Origin: Syntrophomonas sp.
GTDB lineage: Bacteria > Bacillota > Syntrophomonadia > Syntrophomonadales > Syntrophomonadaceae
Length of the DNA stretch: 54,086 nt
Direction: 5' to 3'
Assembly (NCBI GenBank): GCA_039679805.1
Contig: JBDKUD010000215.1
Location: forward strand, 1 to 54,086
Of the stretch, positions 19,321-46,245 are shown piece after piece. The translations under genes and the position numbers were made by a program. Position 1 is the stretch's first letter. Every line of letters begins with the position of its first letter. The notes beneath the pieces are model-generated. The model was not told where the DNA came from. It worked only from the letters and a program-made list of their open reading frames with translations, and did not search any database.

Positions 19321-19414
19321 ATCTCCGAGCCTACTAACCTAATGTAATACCATGGTTTTTAGGCCGTTAGGGTACATCGGGAAACTGGTGTGCCTCCCAG
19401 AGTGGAAAGGAGAA
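19321..19414 (+). promoter_or_regulatory. Moco/Wco-type riboswitch aptamer, copy A
   Basis: ATCTCCGAGCC...AGGGT-ACATCG-GGAAAC-TGGTGT-GCCTCCC-AGAGT-GGAAAGGAGA. The order of blocks matches the Moco RNA motif, and P1 is TCTCC/GGAGA. Confidence 0.7.
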
Positions 19415-19437
19415 GCTGAATACGGTTAGATACTGCG

Positions 19438-19467
19438 GCGAACTGCTTTGTACAGTTCGCTTTTTTT
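19438..19467 (+). terminator. Intrinsic terminator (expression platform of copy A)
   Basis: GCGAACTG / CAGTTCGC stem followed by TTTTTTT. Confidence 0.8.
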
Positions 19468-19638
19468 ATTATATGGGGGGTGTCTAAATCTAATTTTGTT
19501 TACCTTTTTAGACTGGTTTTTTTAATGCCCAGTATTCTTTCACAATGATAATGATTGGAGGTGTGTCCGGCCAAGTTATATTATTTGTATTTATCACGTG
19601 TAATTAGAGAAATATTAATGTTTGGGAGGGATAAGTAA

Positions 19639-22600
19639 TTGAGTAATGCTTGCTTAATGCTTGCAGAAAAGAAAACTAGCCTATGGCTAAAAACCATACT
19701 TGCAGTTCTTATGCTCTTTATGGCTTTTAGTATCGTCACCCCCGCACAGGCCGAAACACTCACCCCGTACATAGGTGAAAATACTACGCAATGGGGAACC
19801 GGACCATTTTGGATTATGCTTACAAATGTTGCTGCGGATGATATTGGAGTCTTAGAAACAACAGAAAATTCCTATACAAATGTAATAAAGACATCTTATG
19901 ATGCTTCGCAGCCGATTAACTTTGAGATTACGATCGGTGGTTCCGGCACGGACGGTTATGGAGCGAACTTGGAGCCCCGTACGGCCCCATATATCAAAAT
20001 CTATGACTCAACAAAAACAAATGTCGTTGCTGAATATAACAATGGAACAGGAGCACTTAAATACATAAGCGGTCTTGACGCTAAGGCCGGCGGATGTGGT
20101 TCAGTTATTCAACAAACCGGCACTGTCGTTACAATGGGTCTGAATGCAAATACTCTTGAACCGAACAAAGAATATTATTTTACAATTGAGCCTGGACTGC
20201 AGAATAAAAGAAATCCGGCTAACTTATACGGCAAAACTATTTGGTTCCGTTTTACGACCTCATCTGGAGTCTCATTGCCGGCCATCCCAACCTGGTCCGA
20301 TGGTGCTTCCCTGTCGGCGGAAGATGTTTTAAATACCGAGCTGGTCTTGAGATGGCCCCAGGTTAGCAACCCTGATGATTTAGCCGGGTATAAAGTTTAT
20401 GTTGATGGAGTTGAAGAGGCAAGTCTTCCTCCTATCCAAGATTATTATGAGCTTTATGGTTTAAACAGCGGACAAAAATATGTACTGTCAGTTAAACCGT
20501 ATAATGAAACAGGGGAACTGGGTGATGCCATAGAAACTATGGTAGTAACTCCGGGTGCCGGCGGTTTATCTTTTACCTTTAATCCTTATGCTATAGATGA
20601 AGGTGAATCAGGATATTATCATAATTATGATATCGTTAACCCGGTAGATATGGATAGCTTTAGCCTGGCCTGGAACTTTGGCAATGGCCTGGACGAAAAT
20701 CTAAGACTTAATTTGGAATGCATTCATCTTATTAATAAAAGTTCTGGTGAGCAAATCCAACTGGATTTAGGAACAGAGCCGTATTCTTTTAGCCCCGAGG
20801 GTGTTATTGAGTCAGGCGATTTCAAATATATCAGTACCGGTGGTGGTACGGGAGGCGGCACAGGCACAGGTACTGGTACTGTCGACCCAACCAGGACCCG
20901 TATGCTTAAATTTGAGCCTGGTGCCAATACTCTGGCCCAAATTAATAAAGGCGGAGATTATGTAATAGAAATTGATCCGGAATTTACTGCTAATAATGGT
21001 ACCAACAAATTAGGAAAAATCTTCACCTTTGCCTTTACCACGGCCATAGATGATATACAAGCTCCCGTTTGGCCTGCCGGTGCCCAAATAACCGCCAGCC
21101 AAGTTGGTACCGATGCCTTTGTATTGAATTGGCCGGAGGCAACCGACAATGTTGGAATTACCGAATACCAGCTTTATAATGAAGATGTATTGGTTAAAAC
21201 GTTTAACAACGGAGTTACCTCCTGCAAGATGGAAGGCTTAACCCCTAATACCACCTATAATCTGGTTTTGAAAGCCAGGGATGCAAAATCCAATTATACT
21301 CTTCTATACCTGACTTTATCAGTAACCACTCTCTTATCTGATGATCAGGCTCCCACCTGGCCAACAGGCAGTAAATTAACAGCTGATAATATTTTGCCTG
21401 ACAATCTGGATCTATACTGGACGCCTGCCGATGATAATGTGGAGGCAACAGGATACCGCTTGCTTGAAAACGGCAATACGGTTGCAGAACTTGATGCCGG
21501 CATTTTAACGTATCATGTTGGTCAGCTGACCCCCAACACGGCTTATATTTTTAAGGTCGAAGCTAGGGATAACGCAGGCAATTACAGCACTACCGGACCT
21601 GAACTGGCTATAAGCACTCTTGCAGGAGAAGCCGATAATACAGCTCCTGTCTGGACAACTAATGGTTATTTCCAAACTTCACTTAGCAATACCGCCGGTA
21701 AAACTTATGTAAATTATAAATGGCCCTGGGCTAATGATAATGTAGCCGTAACCGCATACCTGGTATACAAAGATGGTGTGCAATGCGGTACAGTAGATGC
21801 TTATACCAACAGTTTTAGTGATATACTTGATTATAATAATACCCGTTATACCTATTCTGTATATGCTGTTGATGCAGCAGGCAACAAAAGCATTGAAGGC
21901 AACAGAATGGAGATATTAACCGGCGATCCTAATGAGGATCTCATATCACCTTACTGGCCGGCCGATACTGATATAACCCTCTCAGAATTTACAGATAATA
22001 GTTCCGTAAAGGTTAAATGGACACCTGCCCAGGATAATGTTAAGGTCAGAGGGTATGTGGTAGTAAAAGACGGGTTATGGGTGGAATGGACCGACAATGG
22101 AATTGTCGAAACACCTACCCGCGGAGATTGCTTTGTGGTCTATAATCCCTATATTAACTACAGCTGTCAGCCGTCTTCGGTCTATCCGGAATTAGTATCC
22201 GGCCAAACCTATACCTTTTCGGTTAAGGCTTTTGACCTCAAAGAAAGTTCATCCAAGGGAGACCCCAAAATAACCTTTGTAATGGGGACCAGCCCTACTG
22301 CTGGTTCAGGAATACCCTTTGCTCTTACCAATGTAGGAAATACAAGAGGTTCATTAAATAGTATTACCGGTGCTCTGAATCAGGTGCTGGCACCCCAGGA
22401 TCCGGAAAATACCCAGTTTACCTGGACCTTCGATGAGCCTTTGGCAGCTGGATATGAGAGCAAATTCACCTTAACCAATAACACAACAGGAGCAACAGCA
22501 GCACTTGATCCAACTTATTTCCAATATAGCGAAAATAACGGTAAAGGTATTTTAACGCTTGATTTAACCAGCATTAAGCTGGCAGATAAGACCAATTATA

Positions 22601-25600
22601 TCGTTAAGTTAGATAAAACTCTGACAGCCCAAAGCAGTAAACAATTAGGTTTTGATATTGCCTGGCAGTTTACTACCGATGTAGCTGATAAAACAGCTCC
22701 GTATTGGGGAACAGATGATTCGCTTAATGTAAACTGCGTTAAAGATCCTACAATTGCTACTTTAACCTGGCCAGCAGCCACCGACAATGTAGCAGTCACC
22801 CAATATAAGGTATACCAGGGCGAAACATTGCTTACCGCCCTTCCTGCTGATGTATTAACTTATGATGTGACAGGCTTGGCAGTAAATACTCTTTATAACT
22901 TTAAAGTTATAGCAGAGGATTATCTGGAAAATCTCAGCACTCCATTAACAGTTTCAACAACTACCTCTGTTGCCGATAGTATCGCACCTGCATGGCAAAG
23001 TGGTGCTATGCTAACATTTGCCGATATTTTATCAGATAATGTTAAAGTATCCTGGCCAGCGGCTATCGACGACAAATATGCAATTAAGACTTATAAGCTT
23101 TTCAAAAATGGTTCAAGCGAGCCGTTTGCTGAGGTAGCAGGAAATGTTTTAAATTACAATATTACAGGTCTGGCTGGCGAAACAACCTATAGTATTACCG
23201 TTAAAGCTTTTGACTTCAGCGGAAACTCCGCGGAACTTACGGGCAGTGTTACAACTATTACTGACAGCGTAAGCCCGGTTTGGCCGGAGGGCAGCAAGCT
23301 GCAGGCAAAAGACATTAAAGATACCTCAGTTACACTGTACTGGAACGCGGCAGCTGATAATGTCGGAGTAACAAAATATAATATTTATCGTAATAATGAG
23401 TTCTTACAAACTGTAGAAGCCCCGACAACAGAACTAACTGTAACCGGCTTAACAGGTGCTGCGGAATATACCTTTGCAGTAGAAGCTGTGGATCTAAAAG
23501 GCAATAAAACAACCCAATTAAGCCTGAACCAATGGACAGCACTTAATCCTATTTCAACCGGTGCTGCATTTCCTTTCAGTCTGGAAAGCCCCCTGTCTTA
23601 CAATCAAGCAATCGATGTTGCCGGTAACACTACCAATAATATAGTTGACGGCAGTTTCACCAAAAATAATGTTGCCTTTAGTTTTGCCTTTAGTAAGACG
23701 CTGGCAAATGAGACGTGGCTTAACAATATTGAGCTGAAAGACAACAGCGGACAAACAATCGTGTTGGATTCCAGCGCTTTTACCTATACCGAGCTGGCTG
23801 ATAACACCTCCAAACTAAAAATTACTGTGCCTGCCGGGCTGGTATCAAATGGTCAATATAAACTGACCGTAAAAAATGCTTTAACTGCAGCCGACTCGAC
23901 TGCCATAGGACGGAATTTCGTCTGGACATTTAACGTGTCGGTAGGAATGTATGGTATAACCGATATTGCAGCGGGTTATTATACCACTGGCTTACAGCCG
24001 TCAGCTGCTGAACGCTTCTATATGGTACTGAAAGATGACGGAACTATATGGACCTGGGGAAATAATACCTTCGGAACATTAGGTGATGGTACAACAGATT
24101 CCAGACAGATCCCAACCAAGGTAGAAGCATTAACCGGAATTACAGCTGTGGAAGCTGGAAGAAACAGTGCATTTGCTCTCGATTCGGATGGTGCTGTTTG
24201 GGGATGGGGATCCAACGAATTTGGGCAATTAGGCCGGGGAACTGTTCCCCTTGGTACCAGCGGACGCTACGACAACACTACACCCCAAAAAGTAATTGGT
24301 CTGCCGGCGGCTATTGAGAAATTAAGCTATGGCTTTGGCCATGTGGCAGCGCTTGATGCCAACGGGGAAGTCTGGAATTGGGGCACTGCAGTGCAGCAGG
24401 GAATTTCTACGGATGCACAGTGCAGCGGAACACCGTTAAAAGTCAGCGGTTTATCCAACGTAATCGACGTGGCCGCCGGTTATTATGCTTCTATAGCGGT
24501 AACCAGCAACGGAGATGTATATACCTTTAAAATGGCTGAAACACCGGTGAAAGTTGCAGGCCTTAGTGAGATTGTAGCTGTTGATGCACGGTGTATTGAC
24601 AATAATAATATTTGGATGGCTTTAAAGGCTGACGGTACAGTATATACCTGGGATAGCAATGGAATACCGGTTATGGTTGCAAATGCCAGCCTGATTAAAT
24701 CAGTTATTGCTGATGGGCCTTATGTACTGGGAACTAATGGACAGGTAAGTAATGTTGATTATAGTTCGGCACCGGTATTGGGAACAGAAGTAACTGCCTT
24801 AAATAATGTGGTTAAGGTAGCCAGCTCAGCCCGAGGTGGATTAGCTTTGTTAAATGACGGCAGTTTATTGCAGTTCATTGGTGCTGAAGCAAATGCGGTT
24901 GCTCTGAACATTAATTCCGTTGAAGCTCCGGTTTGGCCTGCAAGCAGTGCGTTAACCATTACTAATTTGACTGAAACAGGATTAACCCTGAACTGGGAGA
25001 AACCAAGTTCCGATGTTTCAGGTTTTGCTATTTTTAAAGATGGTACAAGAATAGCTACTATTTCAGGCAGCACATTAAGTTATGATATTACCGGACTGAC
25101 CAAAGGTCAGAGCTATACTTTCAAAGTTGAAGCTCGTCTTTTAAACAGCGACTGGACTACTGCCGGACCTTCAATTACCCAAACTATGGATGAATGGAAT
25201 CCAACCATGCAGAGTGCCGGTAAAATTGCTTTGAGCAGCAAACATACGCTAATGATTGGTGACGACGGCAGTGTTTGGGCCTGGGGACAAAATGAATATG
25301 GTCAATTGGGAATCGGCAATAACACTGAACAATTGATTCCGGTAAAAATCAATGGCCTTTCTAACATAATAGCTGTGGCTGCAGGTGATAATCACAGTAT
25401 TGCACTCGATAGCAGCGGTAATGTTTGGGCTTGGGGTAAAAATAACCTTTACCAATTAGGTAATGGTGTAACTGCGAACAGTAATATACCGGTAAAGATT
25501 ATCTCCAGTTGTATTAAAGCTATATCTGCCGCCGCCGATCACAGTATCGCCTTGAAAAATGACGGTACAGTTTTGGGGTGGGGTGCAGACGGATATGCAA

Positions 25601-28257
25601 CCAATTTTTCCTTATCGGGTATTGATGGACATGCACCCGGTCAACTGTGGAACGCCACGACAACCGGGGGAGTGTATTATCAACTATCCGGTGTTAAGGG
25701 TATAGCCACTTCGCGTCAATTCAGCACCTACCTTTTTGATGACGGCAGAATTTGCCGCATCGGTCACTTTATTGATGAAGTCGGGGCACCCACAGTAATG
25801 CCTATGAAGCACTATTCCACCTTGATGGGAATTCAAGCTATCGCTGCCGGCGAGAACTTCGTTTTAGCCCTGAAGGAAGACGGAACTGTGCTGAGTCTGG
25901 GTGACAATAATTCCGGTCAATATGGCAACGGTACTCAGGGTAATGGTACACCTGCAGATCCCCGTCCGTATGGAGTGGTGACAGGTCTTAATAATATTGT
26001 GGAAATTGCTGCCGGAGGATACCATTGTATTGCATTGGATCAAAACGGAAATGTCTATACCTGGGGTAAAAACCTCTACGGCCAGCTTGGCACCGGCAAA
26101 ACAGATATTCATCTAACTCCGGTTAAAGTTTCCGGATTAACGGAGATAACTGCAATCGGGGGAGGTACTGAAAGTACTATAGCCTTTAGAAATATGCAAA
26201 AGGTATACGGCTGGGGTAATAATGACAACGGTCAGTTGGGGAATGAAAGCAAAGTTGCCTCTAAAGTACCTACCGTAGCTAAAATGGCGGGCTACGATAC
26301 AGATGTAGACGTACCTGTTTGGCCGGCATATTTTGCACTGATGGTAAACAACATTACTGAGAACAGTGCTACTTTAATGTGGAGTCCTGCCGGTGATGAT
26401 ATGGGCGTAGCCAGCTATGAGATTTATATCAACAATGAGAAAAAGGCCGATGTGGAAGGTACTAAGCTTGAATATACCGTTAGCGGGCTGAATGCGAATA
26501 CAGCGTACGTTTTTGGTATTAAAGCCAAAGATGCAGCAACCAATACCAGTGATATGAGTAAGACGGTATCGATTAATACAAAAGTTGCAGCTGCTATTCC
26601 AAATGCCAATGATATTATCATTGATGGTTATGCAGGTACCAGTATTAATTTACCAGCCGCGGAGATTTCCATACCTAATAATGCATTACTTGATGTCAAT
26701 GCGGGCTTGGCAGTTAAAAATGGAAATAACATTCAAGTGGCTGGACAGAATAAAGATTTAACGCAGTTTGCGATTGACGGTCAAACCAAAGATTTAACGC
26801 AAACTGCCAGTGTAGGAGGCCAACCGGTAGTAATAGAAAAAGCTGTTCAATTACAATCAGCTGTTGACAACCAACCTACGGTTATTAAAAATGATTCATT
26901 ACCTAACATAACGGCATCTGTTCCAGATGGAACAACAATTTTAGCACCCCAAGGTTGGGATGGTACGATTAAGCCACCGACGATAGCTGAAAAGAAAGGG
27001 AATGCACCGGCGGGATTTACCGTTGGCAGTACGGTCCTTGAAGTTGGTAATCCTAATGAAGTACTTCTTTTTGATAAACCTGTAATATTAACTTTAACTG
27101 GAGTTAAAGGCAATAATTTTGCTTATAAACCGTCGGGCTCAAATAATTGGGTAAAAATGTCCCAAGCCGAAGGTACTTATGAGAATCCAATAGCTCCAGC
27201 CTTCCCAGGAGAGGCTTATATTACTAATGGCACTGACACAAAAATAATCACTTGGCATTTTACACAATTTGCTTCTCTGGATGCTGTTACGTCAACTGGC
27301 GGCGGCGGAGGCGGCGGAGTAGCTTTGCCGACTGCCAACACAGTAACTGCCAGTGGCGGAACGGTAAGTGAATTAGGTACAACTATAACAATACCGGCCA
27401 GTGCTTTTAATAGTAACATCGAAGTACAAATTAAAAAGGTAAGCCAAATAACTAATCTGACCATGACATCAACCAGTAAACTACTAAGTGATGTAATTGA
27501 AATAACCAAAGACAAATCAGGTGATTTCAGTAAACCGGTGTCTATAACATTAAGTTTCGACAAAGCCAAAGCGGACCAGGACAAATACAAACTTAGTATC
27601 TACTGGCTGGATGAAAAGACCGGCAAATGGGTGGAACTAAGTAACGTTAAGGTGGATATGGCAACCGGTAAGGTGAGCGGAGAAGTACAGCATTTCACCA
27701 AATTCGCTGTAATAGCTACCGAAAAAGAGCAATTACCGGCAGCCGCATTAAAAGACATTACCGGACATTGGGCCGAAGCTAATATTAATAAACTTATAGC
27801 TTCAGGTGCAATAAGCGGTTATCCGAATGGAACATTCGGACCGGACAATACTATCAGCAGAGCAGAATTCGCCAGTATAATAGTACGTGCTTTTAAACTG
27901 GTACCGAAAGACGGCAGAGTATTTAATGATACAGCTGCCCACTGGGCAAAAGATGCAATAGCCACAGCAGCAGGCAACGGTATAGTGAGTGGTTATGACT
28001 CAGCAAACTTTGGCCCTGATGACAAAATAACCCGGGAGCAAATGGCGATAATAATTGACAAACTAATCAGTAATAATACTTCCACTGGAAAGACATTTGC
28101 CGACGGAAAGGGAATTTCGGCCTGGGCAGAAGATGCAGTTGCCAGAGTCAGTGGAAATGGCATAATCGCAGGTTATCCGGACAATACATTCAGACCGAAG
28201 GTTAATGCCACCAGAGCAGAAGCGGTAACTGTTATCCTGAATGCATTAAGTAAATAG
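19639..28257 (+). CDS. 2872-aa secreted cell-surface protein: Big_5-like modules, many FN3 domains, two RCC1-repeat propeller blocks, three C-terminal SLH domains
   Basis: TTG start 8 nt after GGGAGGG (ATG 19657 is an alternative). Signal peptide ends at ..TPAQA (19751). Recurrent APVWP...W..A.DNVGVT.Y..Y FN3 starts, repeated W.WG.N..GQLG RCC1 motifs, and an SLH triplet at 27748-28254. Confidence 0.9.
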   Translation: MSNACLMLAEKKTSLWLKTILAVLMLFMAFSIVTPAQAETLTPYIGENTTQWGTGPFWIMLTNVAADDIGVLETTENSYTNVIKTSYDASQPINFEITIGGSGTDGYGANLEPRTAPYIKIYDSTKTNVVAEYNNGTGALKYISGLDAKAGGCGSVIQQTGTVVTMGLNANTLEPNKEYYFTIEPGLQNKRNPANLYGKTIWFRFTTSSGVSLPAIPTWSDGASLSAEDVLNTELVLRWPQVSNPDDLAGYKVYVDGVEEASLPPIQDYYELYGLNSGQKYVLSVKPYNETGELGDAIETMVVTPGAGGLSFTFNPYAIDEGESGYYHNYDIVNPVDMDSFSLAWNFGNGLDENLRLNLECIHLINKSSGEQIQLDLGTEPYSFSPEGVIESGDFKYISTGGGTGGGTGTGTGTVDPTRTRMLKFEPGANTLAQINKGGDYVIEIDPEFTANNGTNKLGKIFTFAFTTAIDDIQAPVWPAGAQITASQVGTDAFVLNWPEATDNVGITEYQLYNEDVLVKTFNNGVTSCKMEGLTPNTTYNLVLKARDAKSNYTLLYLTLSVTTLLSDDQAPTWPTGSKLTADNILPDNLDLYWTPADDNVEATGYRLLENGNTVAELDAGILTYHVGQLTPNTAYIFKVEARDNAGNYSTTGPELAISTLAGEADNTAPVWTTNGYFQTSLSNTAGKTYVNYKWPWANDNVAVTAYLVYKDGVQCGTVDAYTNSFSDILDYNNTRYTYSVYAVDAAGNKSIEGNRMEILTGDPNEDLISPYWPADTDITLSEFTDNSSVKVKWTPAQDNVKVRGYVVVKDGLWVEWTDNGIVETPTRGDCFVVYNPYINYSCQPSSVYPELVSGQTYTFSVKAFDLKESSSKGDPKITFVMGTSPTAGSGIPFALTNVGNTRGSLNSITGALNQVLAPQDPENTQFTWTFDEPLAAGYESKFTLTNNTTGATAALDPTYFQYSENNGKGILTLDLTSIKLADKTNYIVKLDKTLTAQSSKQLGFDIAWQFTTDVADKTAPYWGTDDSLNVNCVKDPTIATLTWPAATDNVAVTQYKVYQGETLLTALPADVLTYDVTGLAVNTLYNFKVIAEDYLENLSTPLTVSTTTSVADSIAPAWQSGAMLTFADILSDNVKVSWPAAIDDKYAIKTYKLFKNGSSEPFAEVAGNVLNYNITGLAGETTYSITVKAFDFSGNSAELTGSVTTITDSVSPVWPEGSKLQAKDIKDTSVTLYWNAAADNVGVTKYNIYRNNEFLQTVEAPTTELTVTGLTGAAEYTFAVEAVDLKGNKTTQLSLNQWTALNPISTGAAFPFSLESPLSYNQAIDVAGNTTNNIVDGSFTKNNVAFSFAFSKTLANETWLNNIELKDNSGQTIVLDSSAFTYTELADNTSKLKITVPAGLVSNGQYKLTVKNALTAADSTAIGRNFVWTFNVSVGMYGITDIAAGYYTTGLQPSAAERFYMVLKDDGTIWTWGNNTFGTLGDGTTDSRQIPTKVEALTGITAVEAGRNSAFALDSDGAVWGWGSNEFGQLGRGTVPLGTSGRYDNTTPQKVIGLPAAIEKLSYGFGHVAALDANGEVWNWGTAVQQGISTDAQCSGTPLKVSGLSNVIDVAAGYYASIAVTSNGDVYTFKMAETPVKVAGLSEIVAVDARCIDNNNIWMALKADGTVYTWDSNGIPVMVANASLIKSVIADGPYVLGTNGQVSNVDYSSAPVLGTEVTALNNVVKVASSARGGLALLNDGSLLQFIGAEANAVALNINSVEAPVWPASSALTITNLTETGLTLNWEKPSSDVSGFAIFKDGTRIATISGSTLSYDITGLTKGQSYTFKVEARLLNSDWTTAGPSITQTMDEWNPTMQSAGKIALSSKHTLMIGDDGSVWAWGQNEYGQLGIGNNTEQLIPVKINGLSNIIAVAAGDNHSIALDSSGNVWAWGKNNLYQLGNGVTANSNIPVKIISSCIKAISAAADHSIALKNDGTVLGWGADGYATNFSLSGIDGHAPGQLWNATTTGGVYYQLSGVKGIATSRQFSTYLFDDGRICRIGHFIDEVGAPTVMPMKHYSTLMGIQAIAAGENFVLALKEDGTVLSLGDNNSGQYGNGTQGNGTPADPRPYGVVTGLNNIVEIAAGGYHCIALDQNGNVYTWGKNLYGQLGTGKTDIHLTPVKVSGLTEITAIGGGTESTIAFRNMQKVYGWGNNDNGQLGNESKVASKVPTVAKMAGYDTDVDVPVWPAYFALMVNNITENSATLMWSPAGDDMGVASYEIYINNEKKADVEGTKLEYTVSGLNANTAYVFGIKAKDAATNTSDMSKTVSINTKVAAAIPNANDIIIDGYAGTSINLPAAEISIPNNALLDVNAGLAVKNGNNIQVAGQNKDLTQFAIDGQTKDLTQTASVGGQPVVIEKAVQLQSAVDNQPTVIKNDSLPNITASVPDGTTILAPQGWDGTIKPPTIAEKKGNAPAGFTVGSTVLEVGNPNEVLLFDKPVILTLTGVKGNNFAYKPSGSNNWVKMSQAEGTYENPIAPAFPGEAYITNGTDTKIITWHFTQFASLDAVTSTGGGGGGGVALPTANTVTASGGTVSELGTTITIPASAFNSNIEVQIKKVSQITNLTMTSTSKLLSDVIEITKDKSGDFSKPVSITLSFDKAKADQDKYKLSIYWLDEKTGKWVELSNVKVDMATGKVSGEVQHFTKFAVIATEKEQLPAAALKDITGHWAEANINKLIASGAISGYPNGTFGPDNTISRAEFASIIVRAFKLVPKDGRVFNDTAAHWAKDAIATAAGNGIVSGYDSANFGPDDKITREQMAIIIDKLISNNTSTGKTFADGKGISAWAEDAVARVSGNGIIAGYPDNTFRPKVNATRAEAVTVILNALSK
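23947..24885 (+). other. RCC1-repeat (beta-propeller) block 1 within the 2872-aa protein
   Basis: Repeats such as DGTIWTWGNNTFGTLGDG, DGAVWGWGSNEFGQLGRG and NGEVWNWG. Confidence 0.75.
25218..26278 (+). other. RCC1-repeat (beta-propeller) block 2 within the 2872-aa protein
   Basis: DGSVWAWGQNEYGQLGIG, GNVWAWGKNNLYQLGNG, GNVYTWGKNLYGQLGTG and VYGWGNNDNGQLGN. Confidence 0.8.
27748..28254 (+). other. Three tandem SLH (S-layer homology) domains
   Basis: LKDITGHWAEANINKLIASGAISGYPNGTFGPDNTISRAEFA, FNDTAAHWAKDAIATAAGNGIVSGY..., FADGKGISAWAEDAVARVSGNGIIAGYPDNTFRP. Confidence 0.9.
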
Positions 28258-33662: not shown

Positions 33663-33686
33663 ATTTAAGTCACTCTCTATATTCTA

Positions 33687-34847: not shown

Positions 34848-34862
34848 ATCAACCTCCAGTGT

Positions 34863-35795: not shown

Positions 35796-35875
35796 AAAAC
35801 AAAACCCTCTCCGCTTTCTACAAAATATTTTCAAAGCGCTGCATAGCAATATGTTAACGTACTACAAAACAGCAT

Positions 35876-35906
35876 TGAAAAAGCCGGATGCGAAAACTCA
35901 TCCGGC
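35876..35906 (-). terminator. Intrinsic terminator in the moxR leader (expression platform of copy B)
   Basis: Minus strand reads GCCGGATG-AGTTTTCG-CATCCGGC followed by TTTTTC, about 80 nt upstream of the moxR start. Confidence 0.7.
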
Positions 35907-35930
35907 TTATAACTTTAGCAGCCAAATAAT

Positions 35931-36017
35931 TATCCTTTCCGCCATGGGAGGCATGGCCGTTTCCAGCCAAACCCTGTTCTCTCGCCATAGTCGTGATGAC
36001 CTCAGGCAAGGAGAATC
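35931..36017 (-). promoter_or_regulatory. Moco/Wco-type riboswitch-like aptamer, copy B (divergent variant)
   Basis: Minus strand reads GATTCTCCTTGCC...AGGGT-TTGGCT-GGAAAC-GGCCAT-GCCTCCC-ATGGC-GGAAAGGA. The 5' CCGAG block is replaced by CCTTG. Confidence 0.5.
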
Positions 36018-36212
36018 GGATAGATATTAAATTTAAACAATATTAAAACTTTCCTATATTTTATTACAGTTTAATTTATATCAGTTTTTAGCTAAAAGTC
36101 AAGATAAGTAATTTTTTGTTGTTTATTGTTTATTAATAGTATATAAATAGGAGGAGGAGAATAAATCCTTTCATTGAAGAATATAACTATATATTTTTAT
36201 TATTTTGGAGTG

Positions 36213-36297
36213 TATTTCCGAGTCTTTTGTCCTGTTGCTATGAAAGACCAAAGGGTGTCTTCGGAAACGGACGCGCCTCCCATGGCGGAAAGGAAAA
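36213..36297 (+). promoter_or_regulatory. Moco/Wco-type riboswitch aptamer, copy C (first of a tandem pair)
   Basis: TATTTCCGAGTC...AGGGT-GTCTTC-GGAAAC-GGACGC-GCCTCCC-ATGGC-GGAAAGGAAA. P1 is TTTCC/GGAAA. It is followed by hairpin CTTTTCA/TGAAAAG (36317-36338) with no T-tract. Confidence 0.6.
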
Positions 36298-36379
36298 CGG
36301 AATATATTAATAGAAGCTTTTCAGAAAGGGGTGAAAAGTGCCATTCCCTAAATAAGTCAATTTTATAAGCTGTGAGCAG

Positions 36380-36477
36380 AATTTCCGAGTCTTTTGTCCT
36401 GCGGCATTCTTGGCTATGGCGAAAGATCAAAGGGTGTATTTGGAAACGAGTACGCCTCCCATTATGGAAAGGAGAAA
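36380..36477 (+). promoter_or_regulatory. Moco/Wco-type riboswitch aptamer, copy D (second of a tandem pair)
   Basis: AATTTCCGAGTC...AGGGT-GTATTT-GGAAAC-GAGTAC-GCCTCCC-ATTAT-GGAAAGGAGA. Confidence 0.65.
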
Positions 36478-36493
36478 ACTGAATTTAGAAATT

Positions 36494-36537
36494 GAAGCTT
36501 TTTCCATTCTTTATTGGGAAAAGCTTTTATTATTTTT
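36494..36537 (+). terminator. Intrinsic terminator (expression platform of copy D)
   Basis: GAAGCTTTTTCC / GGGAAAAGCTT stem followed by TTATTATTTTT. Confidence 0.7.
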
Positions 36538-36665
36538 AGAAAGAGGTGAGAAGTACTAAACAATAAGTTTGTAAGATTAAACTAGTCGAATGAGACAAAA
36601 TTTAGTGGACTCATTACCTAATCCCCAATCAAAGAATTATAGCAGGGTAGAAGGAGAGTTGAAAA

Positions 36666-39600: not shown

Positions 39601-42254
39601 TCACGACCTATGCTGGTACATTAATCCCGAGTGGCTCTAGTTATACCATTAAAGATGTAGGCAGCGCGCCTCCTCTCACTGAAGTCGGTTTCAGACCCGT
39701 CAGTTTGATGTTTGATAGTGCGGACAACTTATATGTGGCGGAAGGCAACTGGGACCGCGTCAGAAAGATCGGTATCGATGGCAGTGTTACTTTAGCCGCA
39801 GGGTATGGGTATGCAGCCGGTGTAGCTAATGTGTTTAATGGTGATAATATTCCGGCTACTGCAGCATTGCTGAATAGTGCCCAATTTGCGTCCCTGGATA
39901 AATGGGGAAACATGTATATTATGGATAATCAAAGCATGCGGATTCGTTTTGTTAAAAACCCGCAGGTAGTAGCGGAAGCACCTCCGGTTGTTAACAGCGC
40001 AGTAACTTCTGATGAGACACATATTGTACTCACCATGAGCCGAGCATTATTAGGCACTGCAGTAAACCCCGCAGCTTTCACAGTATCAGGAGCAGCTTCA
40101 AATCCTACAGTAACCGCAGCAGCAGTTTCAGGTACCAGTGTGACACTGACACTAAGTTCAGCAATTGCTTATAACGATACGATAACCGTAAGTTACGCAA
40201 AAACAGGCTTCGACAGTGCAGCTGGGTATAGCAATTTGACTGCAGTGGAAAACTTCACCAATCAGCCAGTAACAGTAACCGTGCCTGCTCCGGGAACTGT
40301 TGCTGTACCGACGGCTGTACCCTCAGGGACTGCTGTAACGGCAGGCACTCAGGTAACGCTGACAACGATGACTGCAGGTGCAACCATATATTACAGCCTG
40401 GACGGCAGCGACCCGACAGCAGCAAGTACAGCATATAACGGCCCGATTACCATTAATAATCCTGTAACCATCAAGGCTATCGCAGTTAAGGACGGTATGA
40501 TAAACAGTACAATCCTGACAGTGTCCTATACAATCAAAAGTGGCAATGGTGGGCCTTCTAGTTTGCCCACTTGGCCGGATGATGCTACATTGACAGTTAG
40601 CAAAAATCAAACTACAGCAACCCTTACCTGGACGGAAGCCACCGGTGAGGTGACCAAATATAGAATATATCGCGGCGTGTCTGGAATTGCTGATACACTG
40701 ATTGCTACAATTGATGCTCCGGCAACAACTTATACAGATACAACACTACAATCAGGTGGTTATACTTATATCTTCAAAGTTGAAGCCGGGAATAACGCAG
40801 GCTGGACCAACAGCGGACCCAGCGCCCAGACTGAGGGCGGACAAAACCCCTTGATTCTTGATGGGGCCTATTTAACTACAGCCACTCCCAGCAGCAGCAC
40901 TTCTGATACAGGAGAATCCGTTGATGACAGCACTAGTGTACCGGTCAAACCAACGATCAAATTCATATTTGAAAGAAGTGTGGCACAAGATGAACTCTGG
41001 TCAAACAATAAGTTATGTTTTACCATGAAAGACAGCTCTGGTGCCAGCGTTTCTTTAAATGTTTTTAAAATTTCAAATGGTACTGAAATCAACCCGAACG
41101 AAAGGCATAATTTATTTATCACGCCCTTAAGCAATCTGACTGCGGGAAATACTTATTATATTACTATAAGTAAAAATTTACAGGCCAATAACGGCAAGAC
41201 GCTTGGTGAAGCTTATGACGGCAAAGATATTGTAATCAGCTTTACTGTGGCCGGGGGTACAAATTCCGGCGGGGGCACTGTTACTACGGATGGTCCCACC
41301 TATACCAACGGTTACGGCTCTGTCGATCCGGCTGTCGGGGCGAGCGTCGCCCTGGATGAAGCAGCCATGGTAGTCATACCGCCCGATGCCCTTAAAGAAA
41401 CTGGTTCTGTCAATGTAAACATCAAGAAGGTAACCACATCGCCAGCAGTTCCAGCAGGATTTAAAGTGGCCGGCGATGTGTACGAGTTTAGTGTAGGAAA
41501 TAAGACATCCTACAGCTTTGCTAAAAGTGTTGCTTTAACGTTTAATTTTGACGCCTCCCAAATCGAGGCGGACGAAGTTCCGGAAATTTACTACTATGAC
41601 GAAGTCCTGAAAAAATGGGTCGGCATCGGGGGCACAGTGTCCGGCTCGACCATCACTGTGCAGGTAAATCACTTTACGAAGTTTGCCGTACTGGCTGTCC
41701 CCAAAGCCGTAGAACCAGTAAAACCAGTAGTACCAGTAGTATCATTTACCGATGTTAACGGAAATTGGGCGGCAGCTAATATAACAAAATTAGCTGCAAC
41801 AGGTGCAATTAAGGGATATACGGACGGAACCTTCAAGCCGGACAACAATATTACCAGGGCTGAGTTCGTTACGGTTCTGGTCAAAGCACTTAAATTAGCG
41901 CCTGCAAGCGGAAAAACCTTCAACGATACTGCAAACAGCTGGAGCAAAGATTACATTGCAACCGCTGTTGCCAATGGTATTATCAATGGTTACAGTGATA
42001 CCACATTTGGCCCTGATGATCCCATCACCCGCGAACAAATGGCGGTGATAATTGTTAAGGCTGACAAGTTAAGCAAAATTCCGAGTGGAAAAATATTTGC
42101 CGACAACGGTGCAATTTCAGCCTGGGCCAAAGATGCTGTCAGCACGGCCAGCGGAAACAGTATTATCGCAGGGTACGCAGACAATACCTTTAGACCCCAA
42201 AATTATGCTAGCAGGGCTGAAGCAGTTACGGTCATTGTCAAAATATTGAAATAA
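36666..42254 (+). CDS. 1862-aa secreted cell-surface protein: Big_5/SbsA-Ig modules, Big_1-like and SwmB-like Ig domains, NHL-repeat propeller, chitobiase-C-like domain, FN3, three SLH domains
   Basis: TTG start 9 nt after AAGGAGAG, with a signal peptide. APDTTAPSVSSSDPANAATGVAINKTVALTFSE (Big_5). NHL repeats GNLYIADTQNSRIREV and similar. GATIYYSLDGSDPT. SLH triplet at 41745-42251. Confidence 0.9.
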   Translation: MRLKRIPLILLLSLIMVLTVGGLTVYAGTNLPNVVSYGVYNFDPNSNDVTTTVPQGTVVSTGNDGVIYNNPPWTTLTDVPYVFGNNVGIGIEFAVNVIPEAYWTANQACFHMYDASNTPVPINVIRLGTVYDGTNGNRNYIFVVPQGQLQPVSTYKIIIDSTLQSNNTMTAGKQQEITLSTAAAPDTTAPSVSSSDPANAATGVAINKTVALTFSENISAGSTYDQISFKDGSNADVLFTKGISGSTLTLDPVSDLDYCTYTVTIPADAVKDAANNDLANEYSLTFSTGLSATISRSRATAGASFTINITGAKDASDTLLTGNNTVTVTNGGAEVYRGDVAFTDGAANVTIPASSTPNSITTVGTYNLTVAIAGVTEQPTVPLTINAGSIDSTQSTAVIDQALSKGTTRAIAVTLKDIFGNPIANKNIKTKVTIANNYSITNESYTVDGTTMTASGFTTAVYTDVSGQYTVNVVMPGAIDPGDGVSIQIAQNNGTSFIGDPFAYYEPIPTPMVTNATSDATHIVLTMDQPLLGTAADTNAFTIHGAASNPTVANAVVSGTNVSLTLNAAIAYNETITLDYARTGINDLNNGPGSQVADFTSQPVINNTPEHAAAPLLVSAASNVQGNVITVIFDKEMAALPAAPAGFSVAVDGASDVVTEVANNTDRAKVELLLTTAINYGQTVTISYSPGTVTALDNGALAGFTDQAVTNNTIQDGYITTLLGDGSSGNSGDNGPATSATMARTIYGCTVVDEMGNIYISDSSNGKVREIAAITHTQFGINMTAGNIYTVAGTGLTRSYAVTDEGQLATAVNLMNSANGIAVDDSGNLYIADTQNSRIREVANTDHNQYGITMTTGCIYTIAGVGATGLTSNTYTTAIAEEGVAATTAHLCNPNALIFDTTGNLYIVDQNNNRIRKMDTSGIINTVAGTGTTNPTADSGPAISFNMRPAAITFDSLGNIFIGDGICGRIYKMDTGGNITTYAGTLIPSGSSYTIKDVGSAPPLTEVGFRPVSLMFDSADNLYVAEGNWDRVRKIGIDGSVTLAAGYGYAAGVANVFNGDNIPATAALLNSAQFASLDKWGNMYIMDNQSMRIRFVKNPQVVAEAPPVVNSAVTSDETHIVLTMSRALLGTAVNPAAFTVSGAASNPTVTAAAVSGTSVTLTLSSAIAYNDTITVSYAKTGFDSAAGYSNLTAVENFTNQPVTVTVPAPGTVAVPTAVPSGTAVTAGTQVTLTTMTAGATIYYSLDGSDPTAASTAYNGPITINNPVTIKAIAVKDGMINSTILTVSYTIKSGNGGPSSLPTWPDDATLTVSKNQTTATLTWTEATGEVTKYRIYRGVSGIADTLIATIDAPATTYTDTTLQSGGYTYIFKVEAGNNAGWTNSGPSAQTEGGQNPLILDGAYLTTATPSSSTSDTGESVDDSTSVPVKPTIKFIFERSVAQDELWSNNKLCFTMKDSSGASVSLNVFKISNGTEINPNERHNLFITPLSNLTAGNTYYITISKNLQANNGKTLGEAYDGKDIVISFTVAGGTNSGGGTVTTDGPTYTNGYGSVDPAVGASVALDEAAMVVIPPDALKETGSVNVNIKKVTTSPAVPAGFKVAGDVYEFSVGNKTSYSFAKSVALTFNFDASQIEADEVPEIYYYDEVLKKWVGIGGTVSGSTITVQVNHFTKFAVLAVPKAVEPVKPVVPVVSFTDVNGNWAAANITKLAATGAIKGYTDGTFKPDNNITRAEFVTVLVKALKLAPASGKTFNDTANSWSKDYIATAVANGIINGYSDTTFGPDDPITREQMAVIIVKADKLSKIPSGKIFADNGAISAWAKDAVSTASGNSIIAGYADNTFRPQNYASRAEAVTVIVKILK
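38818..39958 (+). other. NHL-repeat beta-propeller region of the 1862-aa protein
   Basis: Six repeats of the type GNIYISDSSNGKVREI, GNLYIADTQNSRIREV, GNLYIVDQNNNRIRKM, GNIFIGDGICGRIYKM, DNLYVAEGNWDRVRKI and GNMYIMDNQSMRIRFV. Confidence 0.8.
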
Positions 42255-42378: not shown

Positions 42379-44403
42379 ATGCTTTTTGAAAAAAGAGGCC
42401 CATTGATTTCCATGATCATTCTGGTTGCAATGCTAACGCTGACATTTCCGGTTTTTGCGTTTACCACCGATATTTCCCTGACCAGCGTTAGTGTAAATGG
42501 AAATACTTATCTGGTGACCGGGGATAATGCCGTAGTGAACGAGTCTTTTAATGCTGGTGATCAACCGAGGTTCATTTTGAATTTCAGTCATAATGTGAGC
42601 AATACACTCGACGCAAACCTTGCTAGGCTGTCTATGGTTAAGATCACTTCTGGCGTCGAGCAGGTAATCCCCACAAGCACCTATGGCGGGCTGACGGGTA
42701 TGGGACTGGTAATAAGGCCGGTCAGCGGGCTTGAGAATGGTAATTATAAGATCATAGTGGCACAGGGTATCCAGGCGAATGCTGGTACGATCGAAGAAAC
42801 CTACAGTATATATTTCAATGTGGGAGGCAGCCCGTCCGGCACAGGTGGCGGGATGATAAGTGAAGATGCCCATAAAATAGTCTTTGATATCAAGGGTATT
42901 GCAGCAGATACCAAATATAACGCAACCGTAAAACAGGATAATCAGATCTTTTATCCTCAAAGTGAGAATACTTTCTTTCTTGAACCAGGTGACTATACCT
43001 ATGCCGTGAGTGCATCAGGTTACGTTGCAGTTACCGGCGAGCTTACTGTCAGCAAAGACGAAACCATTCCCATCACCATGACCGACCATGTTCTTATCAC
43101 TTTCAGCACTACGCCTGCTGATGCATCGGTGCGTGTCAAGGTGGGGCAGAATGAATTTATCGATCCATATCAAGTAAATATATTTAAACTTACACCCGGT
43201 ATAGAGTATACATATATCGTTGAGGCGAAAGGCTATATCACGAAAGCTCAGCGATTCACACCGATGGTAAATGAAACGAAAACCGTCCAGCTTTTAGTGG
43301 GCGGTGCAGCAGGCAGCTATTGCGAGCAGGGCAACGGCGGCAATACTCTGACCATGCTTGTACCGGGGTCTTCCCGAATCACTGTCAAGGAGGATAACTT
43401 AGATTATTCTTACAATCTGATATCCGGCTCTTTTGACGGGAGTAAGGAGATTACTTTCGGTTTTACTATGGGAGCGGGGGTTAATAATTTTGGCGACGGT
43501 TCTGGCTTTAAAACCAACAATATGCCCAAGATCGCGGTCTACAAGAGCTATAAGAATGGACCGCAGGGTAACCCGGTAGCGGATTATAAGTCAGGCAACG
43601 GCACTCTCAAATACATAGGATTTAATGCAGGAGCACCCGAGGGGAAGCTTATTACCATCGGCCTGACGAAGGGAGCTTTAAAGGACGGTACTTATGTTCT
43701 TGTATTTGGCAAAAACTTATGCGGAAATAATGTAAACAAAACCCTGGGTAAGGATGTCGTGTTTGAATTCGCAATAGGCCAGAGCGGCAGCAATACTACA
43801 GTAACTGAGCCGTCCCAACCGGTTACTCCGGTAACCGAAGCTGTTTTTTCTGATGTCACGGAAAACAGCTGGTATAAAGAAGCTGTTAACTATGTAGTAA
43901 AAAATGGATTGTTCAAGGGCACTTCAGACAGCACCTTTGATCCCGACCTGCCCATGAACAGAGGTATGTTCGTAACGGTATTGGGAAGGCTGGCTAAAAT
44001 TGACGGCAATTCGGTATACACAGCCCTAGGTTTTACCGATGTGAAGGCGGACGCGTACTATGCCAAATATGTTGCCTGGGCAGCGGAAAAAGGTATAGTT
44101 TCCGGCACCGGGAATGGGAATTTCTCTCCTGACAGGAGCATAACCCGTCAGGAGGCGGCTTCTATAATGTTTAGTTTTTCAAAACCAATGGGTTATGATC
44201 TAAACATTGCGGATAATGCAGCAATGAACAAATTCAATGACGCTTCCCGCGTGGCTGTATGGGCAGCAGATGCAGTGAACTGGGTATTAAGTAAAAAGGT
44301 GATGGGCGGCAGCAACGACGGTTCCCTTAATCCCGGGGGAACTGCTACCCGTGCCCAGGTGGCCCAGATAATTATGAACTTCGTAAATAATGCGGGAAAA
44401 TAG
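42379..44403 (+). CDS. 674-aa secreted SLH-anchored protein with Big_5-like and PEGA-like beta-sandwich modules
   Basis: RBS AAGGGGGAGAG and a signal peptide. PEGA-like repeats (EPGDYTYAVSASGYVAVTGELTV and TPGIEYTYIVEAKGYITKAQRF). SLH triplet at 43846-44400. Confidence 0.85.
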   Translation: MLFEKRGPLISMIILVAMLTLTFPVFAFTTDISLTSVSVNGNTYLVTGDNAVVNESFNAGDQPRFILNFSHNVSNTLDANLARLSMVKITSGVEQVIPTSTYGGLTGMGLVIRPVSGLENGNYKIIVAQGIQANAGTIEETYSIYFNVGGSPSGTGGGMISEDAHKIVFDIKGIAADTKYNATVKQDNQIFYPQSENTFFLEPGDYTYAVSASGYVAVTGELTVSKDETIPITMTDHVLITFSTTPADASVRVKVGQNEFIDPYQVNIFKLTPGIEYTYIVEAKGYITKAQRFTPMVNETKTVQLLVGGAAGSYCEQGNGGNTLTMLVPGSSRITVKEDNLDYSYNLISGSFDGSKEITFGFTMGAGVNNFGDGSGFKTNNMPKIAVYKSYKNGPQGNPVADYKSGNGTLKYIGFNAGAPEGKLITIGLTKGALKDGTYVLVFGKNLCGNNVNKTLGKDVVFEFAIGQSGSNTTVTEPSQPVTPVTEAVFSDVTENSWYKEAVNYVVKNGLFKGTSDSTFDPDLPMNRGMFVTVLGRLAKIDGNSVYTALGFTDVKADAYYAKYVAWAAEKGIVSGTGNGNFSPDRSITRQEAASIMFSFSKPMGYDLNIADNAAMNKFNDASRVAVWAADAVNWVLSKKVMGGSNDGSLNPGGTATRAQVAQIIMNFVNNAGK

Positions 44404-44428
44404 GACTATCAGAAAATATATTATAGCA

Positions 44429-44469
44429 AAGGTGAGGCGCCCCTTCGGGGACTGCTTCACCTTTATTTT
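44429..44469 (+). terminator. Intrinsic terminator after the 674-aa gene
   Basis: AAGGTGAGGC...GCTTCACCTT with an inner CCCC/GGGG stem, followed by TATTTT. Confidence 0.7.
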
Positions 44470-44772: not shown

Positions 44773-44802
44773 TTGACCTATGTGCGTGATAGCCTTGATA
44801 AT
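44773..44802 (+). promoter_or_regulatory. Candidate sigma-A promoter for the 44849 gene
   Basis: TTGACC (-35), an 18-nt spacer, then GATAAT (-10). No riboswitch-like element lies between it and the gene. Confidence 0.4.
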
Positions 44803-44848
44803 ATGACATGGATTATAAACCTTGTATACAAAGGAGAGTGAAAAATCC

Positions 44849-46081
44849 ATGCATATCCTTAAACGTAATCCTTTATTATCTACATTTTTAATAATACTGC
44901 TTTTATTTACGTCACTAATTGCAGGTGCCCAGACAGTACTGGCAGGTGACGGCAGCGGCGGCGGGAAAAATCCACCTTTATTACGGAGTGCCTGTTTGAC
45001 GACTATTAATAATAATGTCTCTGCCACAGGTGATTCTTTGGGAGAGAATATGTCGCTGGCCAATAATCCTCCTACGATTAGAATTGAATTTGCAACCAAT
45101 ATTGCAGATAACACAGTATGGAATGATAACAAAAATTATGTAACGTTATATGACGGTGACCATAAGGCAGTATCTTCTGATGTAAGCAGAATTGACCCTA
45201 CCGTAACTTTTGCGGAGAGAAATTATATTTTTGTTAAACCTTCGGCAGCATTACAACCGGGGTCATATACAATTGTTGTAGATGCCAGGCTTACTTCCAA
45301 GAACGGAATATCATCTGGTCAGGAACAAACGGTAAGTTTCAGTGTTGCTGGAAATACTGACAGCAATAATAACACTAACAACGATACCGGCAGCGGTACC
45401 AATGCTGGTAATAATAACAATATTGGTAATAATACCGATACCAATACAAACAATAATAACAATGATACCAATGATACCAATGATACCAGTAACAACAACG
45501 ATACTGGCAGCAATACTAATAACAGTAATAACAGCAATAATGATAGCAGTATTGTTTTAACAGACATTAGCGGACATTGGGCTGGAAACAATATTAATAA
45601 ACTCGTTAAATCAGGTGTTATCAGCGGTTATCCCGATGGGACATTTAAACCTGATAAAACTATCAGCAGGGCAGAGTTTGTAACTATTATTGTTCGTGCT
45701 TTCAAACTGCCGCCCAAAGCAGGCAAAGTGTTTGCAGATACGGCTAATCATTGGGCTAAGGACTCTATTGCCACAGCCGCTGCATACGGGATAGTTAATG
45801 GTTATAACTCAACTAAATTTGGCCCCGACGATAATATTACCCGGGAACAAATGGCAGTAATCTTAGATAAGGCTTTGAAACTTAACAATGCTGCAGGCGG
45901 CAAAAATTTCATCGACCAGGCTAAGATTTCAACATGGGCTAAAGATGCCGTTGTCAGAGTAAATCAAAATGGCATATTTGCAGGTTATCCGGATAAATCA
46001 TTTAAACCCAAAGCTAGTGCTGCTAGAGCAGAAGCAGCGACTGTTATTTTAAAAGCATTAGATAAAGTAGGAAGTAAATAG
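44849..46081 (+). CDS. Secreted Big_5-like domain protein with Asn/Thr/Asp-rich linker and three SLH domains
   Basis: I chose ATG 44849 (RBS AAGGAGAG) over the ORF-track TTG 44822. Signal peptide, then GDGSGGGK. Low-complexity linker at 45351-45549 and SLH triplet at 45557-46078. Confidence 0.85.
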   Translation: MHILKRNPLLSTFLIILLLFTSLIAGAQTVLAGDGSGGGKNPPLLRSACLTTINNNVSATGDSLGENMSLANNPPTIRIEFATNIADNTVWNDNKNYVTLYDGDHKAVSSDVSRIDPTVTFAERNYIFVKPSAALQPGSYTIVVDARLTSKNGISSGQEQTVSFSVAGNTDSNNNTNNDTGSGTNAGNNNNIGNNTDTNTNNNNNDTNDTNDTSNNNDTGSNTNNSNNSNNDSSIVLTDISGHWAGNNINKLVKSGVISGYPDGTFKPDKTISRAEFVTIIVRAFKLPPKAGKVFADTANHWAKDSIATAAAYGIVNGYNSTKFGPDDNITREQMAVILDKALKLNNAAGGKNFIDQAKISTWAKDAVVRVNQNGIFAGYPDKSFKPKASAARAEAATVILKALDKVGSK

Positions 46082-46101
46082 ATTAAGTTTAAAACTAAAT
46101 A

Positions 46102-46192
46102 ATCTCCGAGCCTGTTAACCTGAGGTTTAATGGTTTACAGGCCGATAGGGTGCAGTGGGAAACTGCTGTACCTCCCAGTGCGGAAAGGAGAA
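46102..46192 (+). promoter_or_regulatory. Moco/Wco-type riboswitch aptamer, copy E
   Basis: ATCTCCGAGCC...AGGGT-GCAGTG-GGAAAC-TGCTGT-ACCTCCC-AGTGC-GGAAAGGAGA. It is a close paralogue of copy A and begins 20 nt after the upstream stop codon. Confidence 0.7.
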
Positions 46193-46214
46193 GCTGATAC
46201 GGTTGGAATATCGC

Positions 46215-46245
46215 GGCGAAGTGCTTTGTGCAGTTCGCCTTTTTT
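46215..46245 (+). terminator. Intrinsic terminator (expression platform of copy E)
   Basis: GGCGAAGTG / CAGTTCGCC stem (one mismatch) followed by TTTTTT. It is nearly identical to the copy A terminator. Confidence 0.75.

Follow-up and report, generated by a model that had tools for sequence, protein, structure and literature searches.

Moco riboswitches that lack the P3 hairpin were described in 2008 and were proposed to sense the tungsten pyranopterin cofactor (PMC2408646). Regulski et al., 2008 (PMC2408646) characterised the class by a P1 helix, a P2 helix with a tetraloop-receptor-like bulge, a GAAA-capped P4 and the blocks CCUCCC...GGAAAGG, with P3 absent from these variants, and reported terminator-type OFF platforms, 15 copies in S. 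wolfei and tandem and triple arrangements, all of which resemble what we describe here. The P3-less variants, their high copy number in Syntrophomonas and their tandem copies are already published (PMC2408646, PMC9481103). More recently, a regulon under such switches was described in Eubacterium limosum, which carries five P3-less copies of the corresponding Rfam family, RF01055, in its genome; the regulon has WOR1, tupABC and focA and, unlike the locus described here, includes no surface proteins (PNAS 2024, PMC11725836). Here we analysed a stretch of 54,086 nucleotides from a Syntrophomonas sp. (contig JBDKUD010000215.1, positions 1 to 54,086; hereafter the window), which by itself holds five P3-less copies. 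The function of a riboswitch target is normally tied to the ligand, and the surface targets in the window are the unusual part. While the RNA elements are ordinary, the novelty lies in a conserved cell-surface regulon, undescribed in the literature searched, for which we infer that the most likely function is tungsten (W) or molybdenum (Mo) acquisition under cofactor shortage.

When the whole window was compared with Rfam 15 at the curated gathering thresholds, exactly five matches to RF01055, the Moco/tungsten-cofactor riboswitch aptamer, were obtained, with scores of 44.7-76.4 bits (E 9e-17 to 2e-7), all above the gathering score of 36 bits. They are copy A (19311-19428, + strand, 76.4 bits, E 9e-17), copy B (35916-36033, - strand, 61.9 bits), copy C (36204-36311, + strand, 44.7 bits, E 2e-7), copy D (36371-36490, + strand, 62.2 bits) and copy E (46092-46206, + strand, 62.2 bits). 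A more permissive scan of positions 17000-54086 revealed no further RF01055 copy, sub-threshold matches included. The first-pass annotation of this DNA, made from the sequence alone, had reported five Moco/Wco-type aptamers with a single hairpin before AGGG; the RF01055 matches lie at the same five places, about 10 nt longer on each side, and agree with that architecture. Each alignment covers model positions 1-135 with few non-canonical pairs, and in all five the P3 hairpin (approximately model positions 60-74) is deleted, the spacing from P2 to AGGG being 2-5 nt. Since P3 is missing from every alignment, we assign all five to the P3-less subclass: they are genuine members of the known RF01055 family and of its P3-less ("Tuco/Wco") subclass.

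The core of the aptamer is well preserved. AGGG, the GAAA tetraloop on P4, CCUCCC and GGAAAGG are kept in five of five copies, and the junction reads CCGAG in A, C, D and E and CCGAU in B. The two halves of the P2-bulge tetraloop receptor, CCUNNG ... YAUGG, can be read in A, B, D and E, where docking is putative as it is deduced from the sequence. Copy C keeps CCUG and CUAUG, but its P2 is shortened, with the distal stem reduced to a 3-nt loop, and its P4 carries a mismatch. Over aptamer and terminator A and E are 82% identical, and C and D share 72% identity; judged by these values, the five copies are not independent lineages, and A/E and C/D are recent duplicates.

The helices vary in a compensatory manner, and what had been stated at first pass about covariation in P1 and P4 is correct, provided that P4 is numbered upwards from the bottom of its stem. 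In P1, A and E have UCUCC/GGAGA, B has UAUCC/GGAUA, C has UUUCC/GGAAA and D has UUUCC/GGAGA. Position 2 of P4 is C-G in A and E, U-A in B and D, and U-G in C, while position 4 is U-G in A and D, G-C in B and E, and U-A in C. As P2 is misplaced by one column when the five copies are aligned with MAFFT, such alignments were not used for covariation or model building; instead, pairs were counted anchored on the invariant motifs in a wider set of 129 unique P3-less sequences, drawn from the window and an arbitrary genome sample. In this set the variable P4 pairs 2-6 were paired in 91-96% of sequences, compared with 45-67% when partners were shuffled, and each position showed several pair types.

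A stem and T-tract had been noted after A, B, D and E, and we located terminators for all four. The terminator of A (19437-19468, + strand) has a 9-bp stem with five G-C pairs followed by TTTTTTT, and it appears as a hairpin in the minimum-free-energy fold. That of B (35876-35908, - strand) consists of AAGCCGGAUG...CAUCCGGCUU followed by UUUUC, and that of E (46215-46245, + strand) of GGCGAAGUGC...GCAGUUCGCC followed by UUUUUU, both identified from sequence and fold; D (36494-36537, + strand) has a 13-bp stem and a T-run. With an intrinsic terminator behind each of them, we read A, B, D and E as OFF switches. In D, folding with the 3' arm of the terminator withheld pairs the 3' strand of P1, GGAGAAAA, with the 5' arm of the terminator, CUUUUUCC, which gives a clear antiterminator, and an antiterminator for B is plausible in folds. 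Copy C, which stands in tandem with D, has no terminator of its own: a hairpin is present and the U-tract is absent. An alignment with the D-type leaders of relatives shows C to be such a leader from which the terminator hairpin has been cleanly removed. Hence either C and D form a tandem pair that uses D's platform or C is decaying.

Based on these observations, we propose the following model. At high levels, the W (or Mo) pterin cofactor would bind the aptamer and lock P1; with P1 locked, the 5' arm of the terminator would be free and transcription would stop in the leader. Under cofactor shortage, the 3' strand of P1 would pair with the 5' arm of the terminator and RNA polymerase would read through. 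The island would then constitute a cofactor-starvation regulon, in which a group of surface proteins is turned on along with the import of oxyanions. In E. limosum, W limitation derepresses the P3-less switches of terminator type that precede fetABC1 and focA (PMC11725836), which is the same logic as that proposed for the island. That the ligand of P3-less RNAs is the W cofactor and not its Mo counterpart is the proposal of 2008, for which in vivo support is indirect and comes from another species (PMC2408646, PMC11725836). Overall, the best explanation of the locus, and one that we consider rather likely, is that P3-less cofactor switches exert terminator-type OFF control over an importer, surface proteins and a MoxR-DUF58-TgpA operon. 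Our statements on function draw on sequence, structure prediction and synteny.

The target of E is the most conventional of the four transcription units. The operon (46365-52574, + strand), assigned from Pfam, PDB matches and a structure model, begins with a gene for a secreted 257-amino-acid Big_5 protein (46365-47138, + strand), followed by a MolB-like FecCD permease (47232-48245, + strand), an ATP-binding cassette (ABC) ATPase (48249-49106, + strand), a 364-amino-acid MolA-like lipoprotein binding protein of the Peripla_BP_2 family (49093-50187, + strand) and three TiaS-TCKD-like paralogs (50225-50956, 51026-51766 and 51774-52574, + strand). The best solved relative of the permease is HI1471 (MolB; 257 bits, E 1.7e-75), whereas HmuU, FhuB and BtuC score 135-169 bits, HmuU being the next best at 169. 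MolA (HI1472) is the second-best PDB match of the binding protein (E 9e-29), outranked by the uncharacterised 4OVK, a likeness judged over the sequence as a whole. Molybdate and tungstate are both ligands of MolA, and the MolBC-A importer, which takes up molybdate, is of type II (PMC4031551). The MolBC-A system of Haemophilus influenzae (HI1470/HI1471/HI1472, PMC4031551) has the same three-component layout as operon E; unlike it, operon E encodes in addition the secreted Big_5 protein and the three TiaS-TCKD-like proteins. Given the homology to HI1471 and MolA, we believe that E precedes a canonical uptake target, a MolBC-A-type (type II) importer with molybdate/tungstate as its predicted substrate. 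The first-pass annotation had set the genes of the island apart from the moa, mod and tup genes expected behind such switches; this holds for the unusual genes under A, B and C/D and misleads for E.

Importers of this kind recur behind P3-less switches elsewhere (loci in other genomes and metagenomes are given here by our L numbers). Homologous importers follow such switches in metagenome-assembled genomes (MAGs) of Chloroflexota (L029), Clostridiaceae (L080) and Syntrophomonas (L115), and a contig from a fermentation metagenome (L127) carries two divergent P3-less switches (4714-4832, - strand, and 5175-5294, + strand), each before its own MolBC-A-like operon. In L080 the importer operon contains TiaS-like genes and ends with a MobB-like gene (6625-7374; molybdopterin-guanine dinucleotide synthesis protein B), which ties the importer/TiaS-like cluster to cofactor metabolism and not to iron. 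FepD/FepC/TroA_e (FecCD-type) operons after Moco RNAs are already among the gene contexts of the 2008 supplement (PMC2408646), and two of the E. limosum copies precede "Fe ABC-type" transporters (PMC11725836), whereas the importer of operon E is closest to MolBC-A. By analogy, fetABC1/2 of E. limosum may be MolBC-A-type tungstate/molybdate importers and not iron importers, and the same may be true of other "iron-type" ABC importers behind Tuco riboswitches.

The TiaS-like proteins of operon E, encoded in tandem, are 37-46% identical to one another and are standalone proteins of the TiaS-TCKD or methanogenesis-marker-11-like type, which form a large family with 5876 matches at E<=1e-8. Their assignment comes from a structure model and a fold search: the AlphaFold model has a predicted local distance difference test (pLDDT) score of 89.6, and the TCKD domain of TiaS is its sole strong fold match. 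HPPK (pterin pyrophosphokinase) and PII were considered as relatives and rejected, as the fold matches were too weak.

The remaining three of the four transcription units (A, B and C/D) encode giant SLH surface proteins or MoxR-DUF58-TgpA and, unlike E, include no genes for W/Mo transport, pterin synthesis or cofactor-dependent enzymes. Copy A precedes a secreted protein of 2872 amino acids (19639-28257, + strand) with seven fn3 domains, RCC1 beta-propellers, a weak Big_5 match and three C-terminal SLH domains. On the opposite strand, B precedes an operon (31263-35849, - strand), defined by Pfam and synteny, that encodes a MoxR AAA+ ATPase (34863-35849, - strand; AAA_3, AAA_lid_2), a divergent DUF58 protein of 386 amino acids (33687-34847, - strand), whose more distant homologs carry PF01882, and a TgpA-like transglutaminase (31263-33662, - strand; Transglut_core, TgpA_N). 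Downstream of C and D lie genes for a 1862-amino-acid protein with Big_5, SWM, NHL-propeller, CHB_HEX_C and SLH domains (36666-42254, + strand), a 674-amino-acid SLH protein (42379-44403, + strand) and a 419-amino-acid Big_5-like/SLH protein (44822-46081, + strand). At their C-termini, the surface proteins have recombining SLH modules in common, which are 48-68% identical.

Gene contexts so atypical for the class could mean that the copies before the surface-protein and MoxR genes are derived aptamers with a different ligand, an alternative that had also been raised at first pass, and the junction before AGGG is indeed often CCAA in D-type copies, as against CCGAU in most TupA-associated copies. 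However, the tracked core motifs, CCGA(G/U), AGGG, the GAAA loop, CCUCCC and GGAAAGG, are all kept together with the helices; the core nucleotides are the same as those of TupA-associated copies, which the window's copies also match in features outside the helices. Moreover, A, which serves a surface protein, and E, which serves the Mo/W importer, are near-duplicates whose 82% identity includes the expression platform. A metagenome scan with a pattern specific for the A/E leader found eight contigs, in which A-type leaders obtained with this one pattern precede giant proteins and MolBC-A-like operons alike. As A and E are near-duplicates and the core is intact, we reject a changed ligand, which we regard as very improbable.

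The pairing of switch and surface gene is conserved in relatives. Among the metagenome contigs, L122 and L123 have a switch before a 68%-identical ortholog of the 2872-amino-acid protein, L123 has in addition a switch before a giant SLH open reading frame of 2517 amino acids and a tandem pair, and in L121 the switch is followed by a protein more distantly related to the giant one. Three NCBI MAG contigs (L129, L130 and L131) were reached through homologs of the DUF58 protein that are 72-77% identical to it. In all three the order MoxR-DUF58-TgpA-Big_5-632-amino-acid protein is kept, with an RF01055 match directly upstream of MoxR (71.8-74.4 bits) whose P4 shows compensatory changes, and the terminator of B is conserved, again with compensatory changes, in L129 and L131. 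These contigs hold 11 RF01055 matches in 63 kb; their other switches precede fn3/SLH, dockerin, cohesin/CW_binding_2, Big_5/NHL giant and fn3/RCC1 giant proteins and a FecCD operon. In L132 the order switch-Big_5-FecCD-ABC-binding protein-Tia is maintained and a TiaS-like gene product is 96% identical to that of the window. The nearest relatives are labelled as Syntrophomonas or Pelotomaculum MAGs.

Such conservation bears on whether most copies could be passengers or relics, that is, leaders copied along with recombining surface-protein cassettes. Some features of the window are of the kind that this explanation calls for: the pairs A/E and C/D arose by recent duplication, C is without the terminator it once had, its P2 is shortened and its P4 mismatched, and the SLH modules recombine among the surface proteins. 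Yet orthologous switches have been kept with compensatory changes and intact terminators in three genomes in which the DUF58 protein has diverged to 72-77% identity, switches also precede the unrelated MoxR and FecCD genes, and every copy exceeds the gathering threshold by a wide margin. We consider it hardly credible that most of these copies are relics, and this is the least probable of the explanations discussed here.

Beyond the immediate clade, a genome pattern scan yielded at least 120 loci; as these are an arbitrary sample, proportions are rough. Among the matches listed, SLH proteins follow P3-less switches at four loci, in Pelotomaculum (L037, L100), Desulfotomaculum (L043) and Syntrophomonas (L057). 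In L043 the switch is followed by a TupA-like protein and then an SLH protein, and in L057 by an FmdE-like protein, Big_7 and SLH proteins. In L037, a Pelotomaculum MAG, the switch stands before a 1034-amino-acid SLH protein (3988-7092) in which an Oxidored_molyb domain, of the sulfite-oxidase family, scores 26.2 bits, the cutoff being 24; this protein may be a surface-anchored Mo/W enzyme. SLH genes behind switches of this class are thus found in L122/L123, in L129-L131 and in Pelotomaculum, Desulfotomaculum and Syntrophomonas, and, to judge by these gene contexts, the unusual targets are conserved within the clade and more loosely beyond it. The cofactor-linked envelope regulon suggested by the first-pass annotation gains comparative support from these orthologous pairings of switch and gene, with the amendment that E, within that regulon, serves canonical uptake.

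Several observations weigh against OFF control of the whole island by the cofactor. With regard to the RNA, ligand binding has never been directly shown for the class, owing to the instability of the cofactor (PMC2408646); the folds of A and E show weak antiterminators; and C, which lacks a terminator, may be a decaying duplicate. With regard to the targets, surface proteins are a minority among the 97 first genes after P3-less switches in the matches listed, and a clade-biased one: 24-26 of these genes are of the TupA/ModA type, 11 are formate dehydrogenase (FDH)-like, seven are AOR, seven belong to the sulfite-oxidase family, six are MoCF_biosynth and four are MoeA. MoxR-DUF58-TgpA was not found behind P3-less switches outside the clade among the same matches, and an S. 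wolfei-like Big_5-binding protein-Tia cluster (L133) has no riboswitch. Finally, the giant proteins show adhesin-like repeats only (Ig, fn3, propellers and SLH), with no recognisable metal- or pterin-binding domain in the pieces scanned; likewise, no enzyme or cofactor domain was detected in 500-amino-acid pieces covering residues 1-2500 of the 2872-amino-acid protein and 1-1500 of the 1862-amino-acid protein.

What the surface proteins do is a separate question from how they are controlled. Surface and uptake genes share one unit in operon E of the window, in L132, in L129 and L130, where an SLH protein follows FecCD-ABC-binding protein in the same direction, and in L043 and L057. Because SLH and Ig-like proteins are thus repeatedly co-transcribed with W/Mo uptake components behind these switches, we favour a role in acquisition: the surface proteins and the small Big_5 proteins may serve to capture W/Mo at the surface, retain it or hand it over to the importer, a suggestion that we put forward tentatively and rate at somewhat less than even. 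Alternatively, the switches may sense the cofactor while the surface proteins play no part in capturing metal. A shortage would cripple W/Mo FDHs, and in a syntrophic bacterium this would serve as a physiological signal for altering surface or adhesion behaviour, for example aggregation with partner methanogens or attachment. The giants do resemble adhesins or scaffolds in their Ig-like and fn3 domains, RCC1/NHL propellers and SLH modules, dockerin and cohesin modules occur in relatives, the nearest of which are annotated as Syntrophomonas or Pelotomaculum, and FDH genes are common targets of P3-less switches. Nevertheless, this alternative leaves the co-transcription with uptake unexplained, namely the Big_5 gene at the head of the importer operon, the SLH gene after FecCD-ABC-binding protein and TupA followed by SLH, and we think it rather unlikely.

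The acquisition role can be extended to a fuller scheme, which we offer as speculation for these syntrophic Firmicutes and judge rather unlikely. Giant proteins anchored by SLH or cohesin/dockerin modules, together with small Big_5 proteins, would capture W/Mo species outside the cell and hand it to the MolBC-A-type importer; MoxR-DUF58-TgpA would assemble or cross-link this extracellular W/Mo apparatus, and the cytoplasmic TiaS-TCKD-like proteins would act in an ATP-dependent cofactor step. In the Isd systems for heme acquisition of Gram-positive bacteria, wall- or SLH-anchored receptors relay the ligand to a FecCD-type ABC importer. The island resembles Isd, by analogy, in that a type II ABC importer appears to share its regulation, and in part its transcripts, with secreted proteins anchored to the wall and with a small Ig-fold protein that is also secreted. 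In contrast to Isd, NEAT domains are absent here and ligand binding by the surface proteins is only hypothesised, so that the likeness is one of analogy and not of homology. If the scheme were true, the apparatus would do for metal oxyanions what the Isd relay does for heme.

With respect to earlier work, the S. wolfei contexts in the 2008 supplement differ from those of the window, since the gene-context entries there name TupA, FDH, MoaA, TroA_e, sulfite-oxidase family proteins, Fe-hydrogenase and "hypo" (PMC2408646). The term "S-layer" does not appear among Moco RNA targets in a term search of that supplement and its gene-context entries (PMC2408646), and the full-text literature searched contains no report of S-layer/SLH, cohesin/dockerin or MoxR-DUF58-TgpA targets. 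That more than ten cofactor switches are conserved before such genes would point either to a surface route of W/Mo acquisition or to a coupling of cofactor status to the surface behaviour of syntrophs, organisms that depend on W/Mo FDHs; the conserved arrangement suggests that cofactor shortage remodels the cell surface. It also provides a testable handle on TgpA modules, Big_5 proteins and standalone TiaS-TCKD proteins.

Three neighbouring genes have no riboswitch of their own. A secreted 632-amino-acid protein with no detectable domain (28493-30391, - strand) and a secreted 246-amino-acid Big_5 protein (30529-31269, + strand), a paralog of the first gene product of operon E, both lie beside TgpA in L129-L131 as well; sequence searches of the PDB with the 632-amino-acid protein and the 257-amino-acid Big_5 protein returned nothing useful. 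The divergent neighbour of A (17749-18873, - strand) encodes a MOT1-family molybdate-transporter homolog of the major facilitator superfamily (PF16983, E 1.8e-54), and a MOT1 homolog with 36% identity directly follows a P3-less riboswitch in a Scalindua MAG (L118).

The position of E raises a further point about how operon E is transcribed. The riboswitch starts 10 nt past the stop codon of the gene for the 419-amino-acid SLH protein (window 46081-46092), and its ortholog in L132 (5848-5858) likewise starts just past the stop codon of the preceding gene. E may be an attenuator within a long transcript begun at C/D, or it may have its own promoter inside the upstream gene. A promoter-like site is present at 45951-45978, within the gene upstream of E.

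A conserved element, AGAAAGAGGUGAGAAGUACUAAA, follows the terminator of D (36535-36566) and is found after C as well (36320-36350). It comprises a Shine-Dalgarno-like run, a GTG and a mini open reading frame of 6-7 codons, occurs also in the orthologous leaders of L130 and L131, and may encode a leader peptide or act as a further element of regulation. The switch-controlled genes of L130 and L131 include those for dockerin, cohesin, CW_binding_2, cadherin-like and BclA_C proteins, which from their domains look like a cellulosome-style surface scaffold under cofactor control in organisms that bear the names of syntrophic genera (Syntrophomonas, Pelotomaculum). The only other RNA match in the window is a thiamine pyrophosphate (TPP) riboswitch (RF00059; 9418-9524, + strand, 72.3 bits), which is ordinary and sits upstream of a fused ThiD/ThiE gene (9626-11134) followed by thiC (11154-12452).

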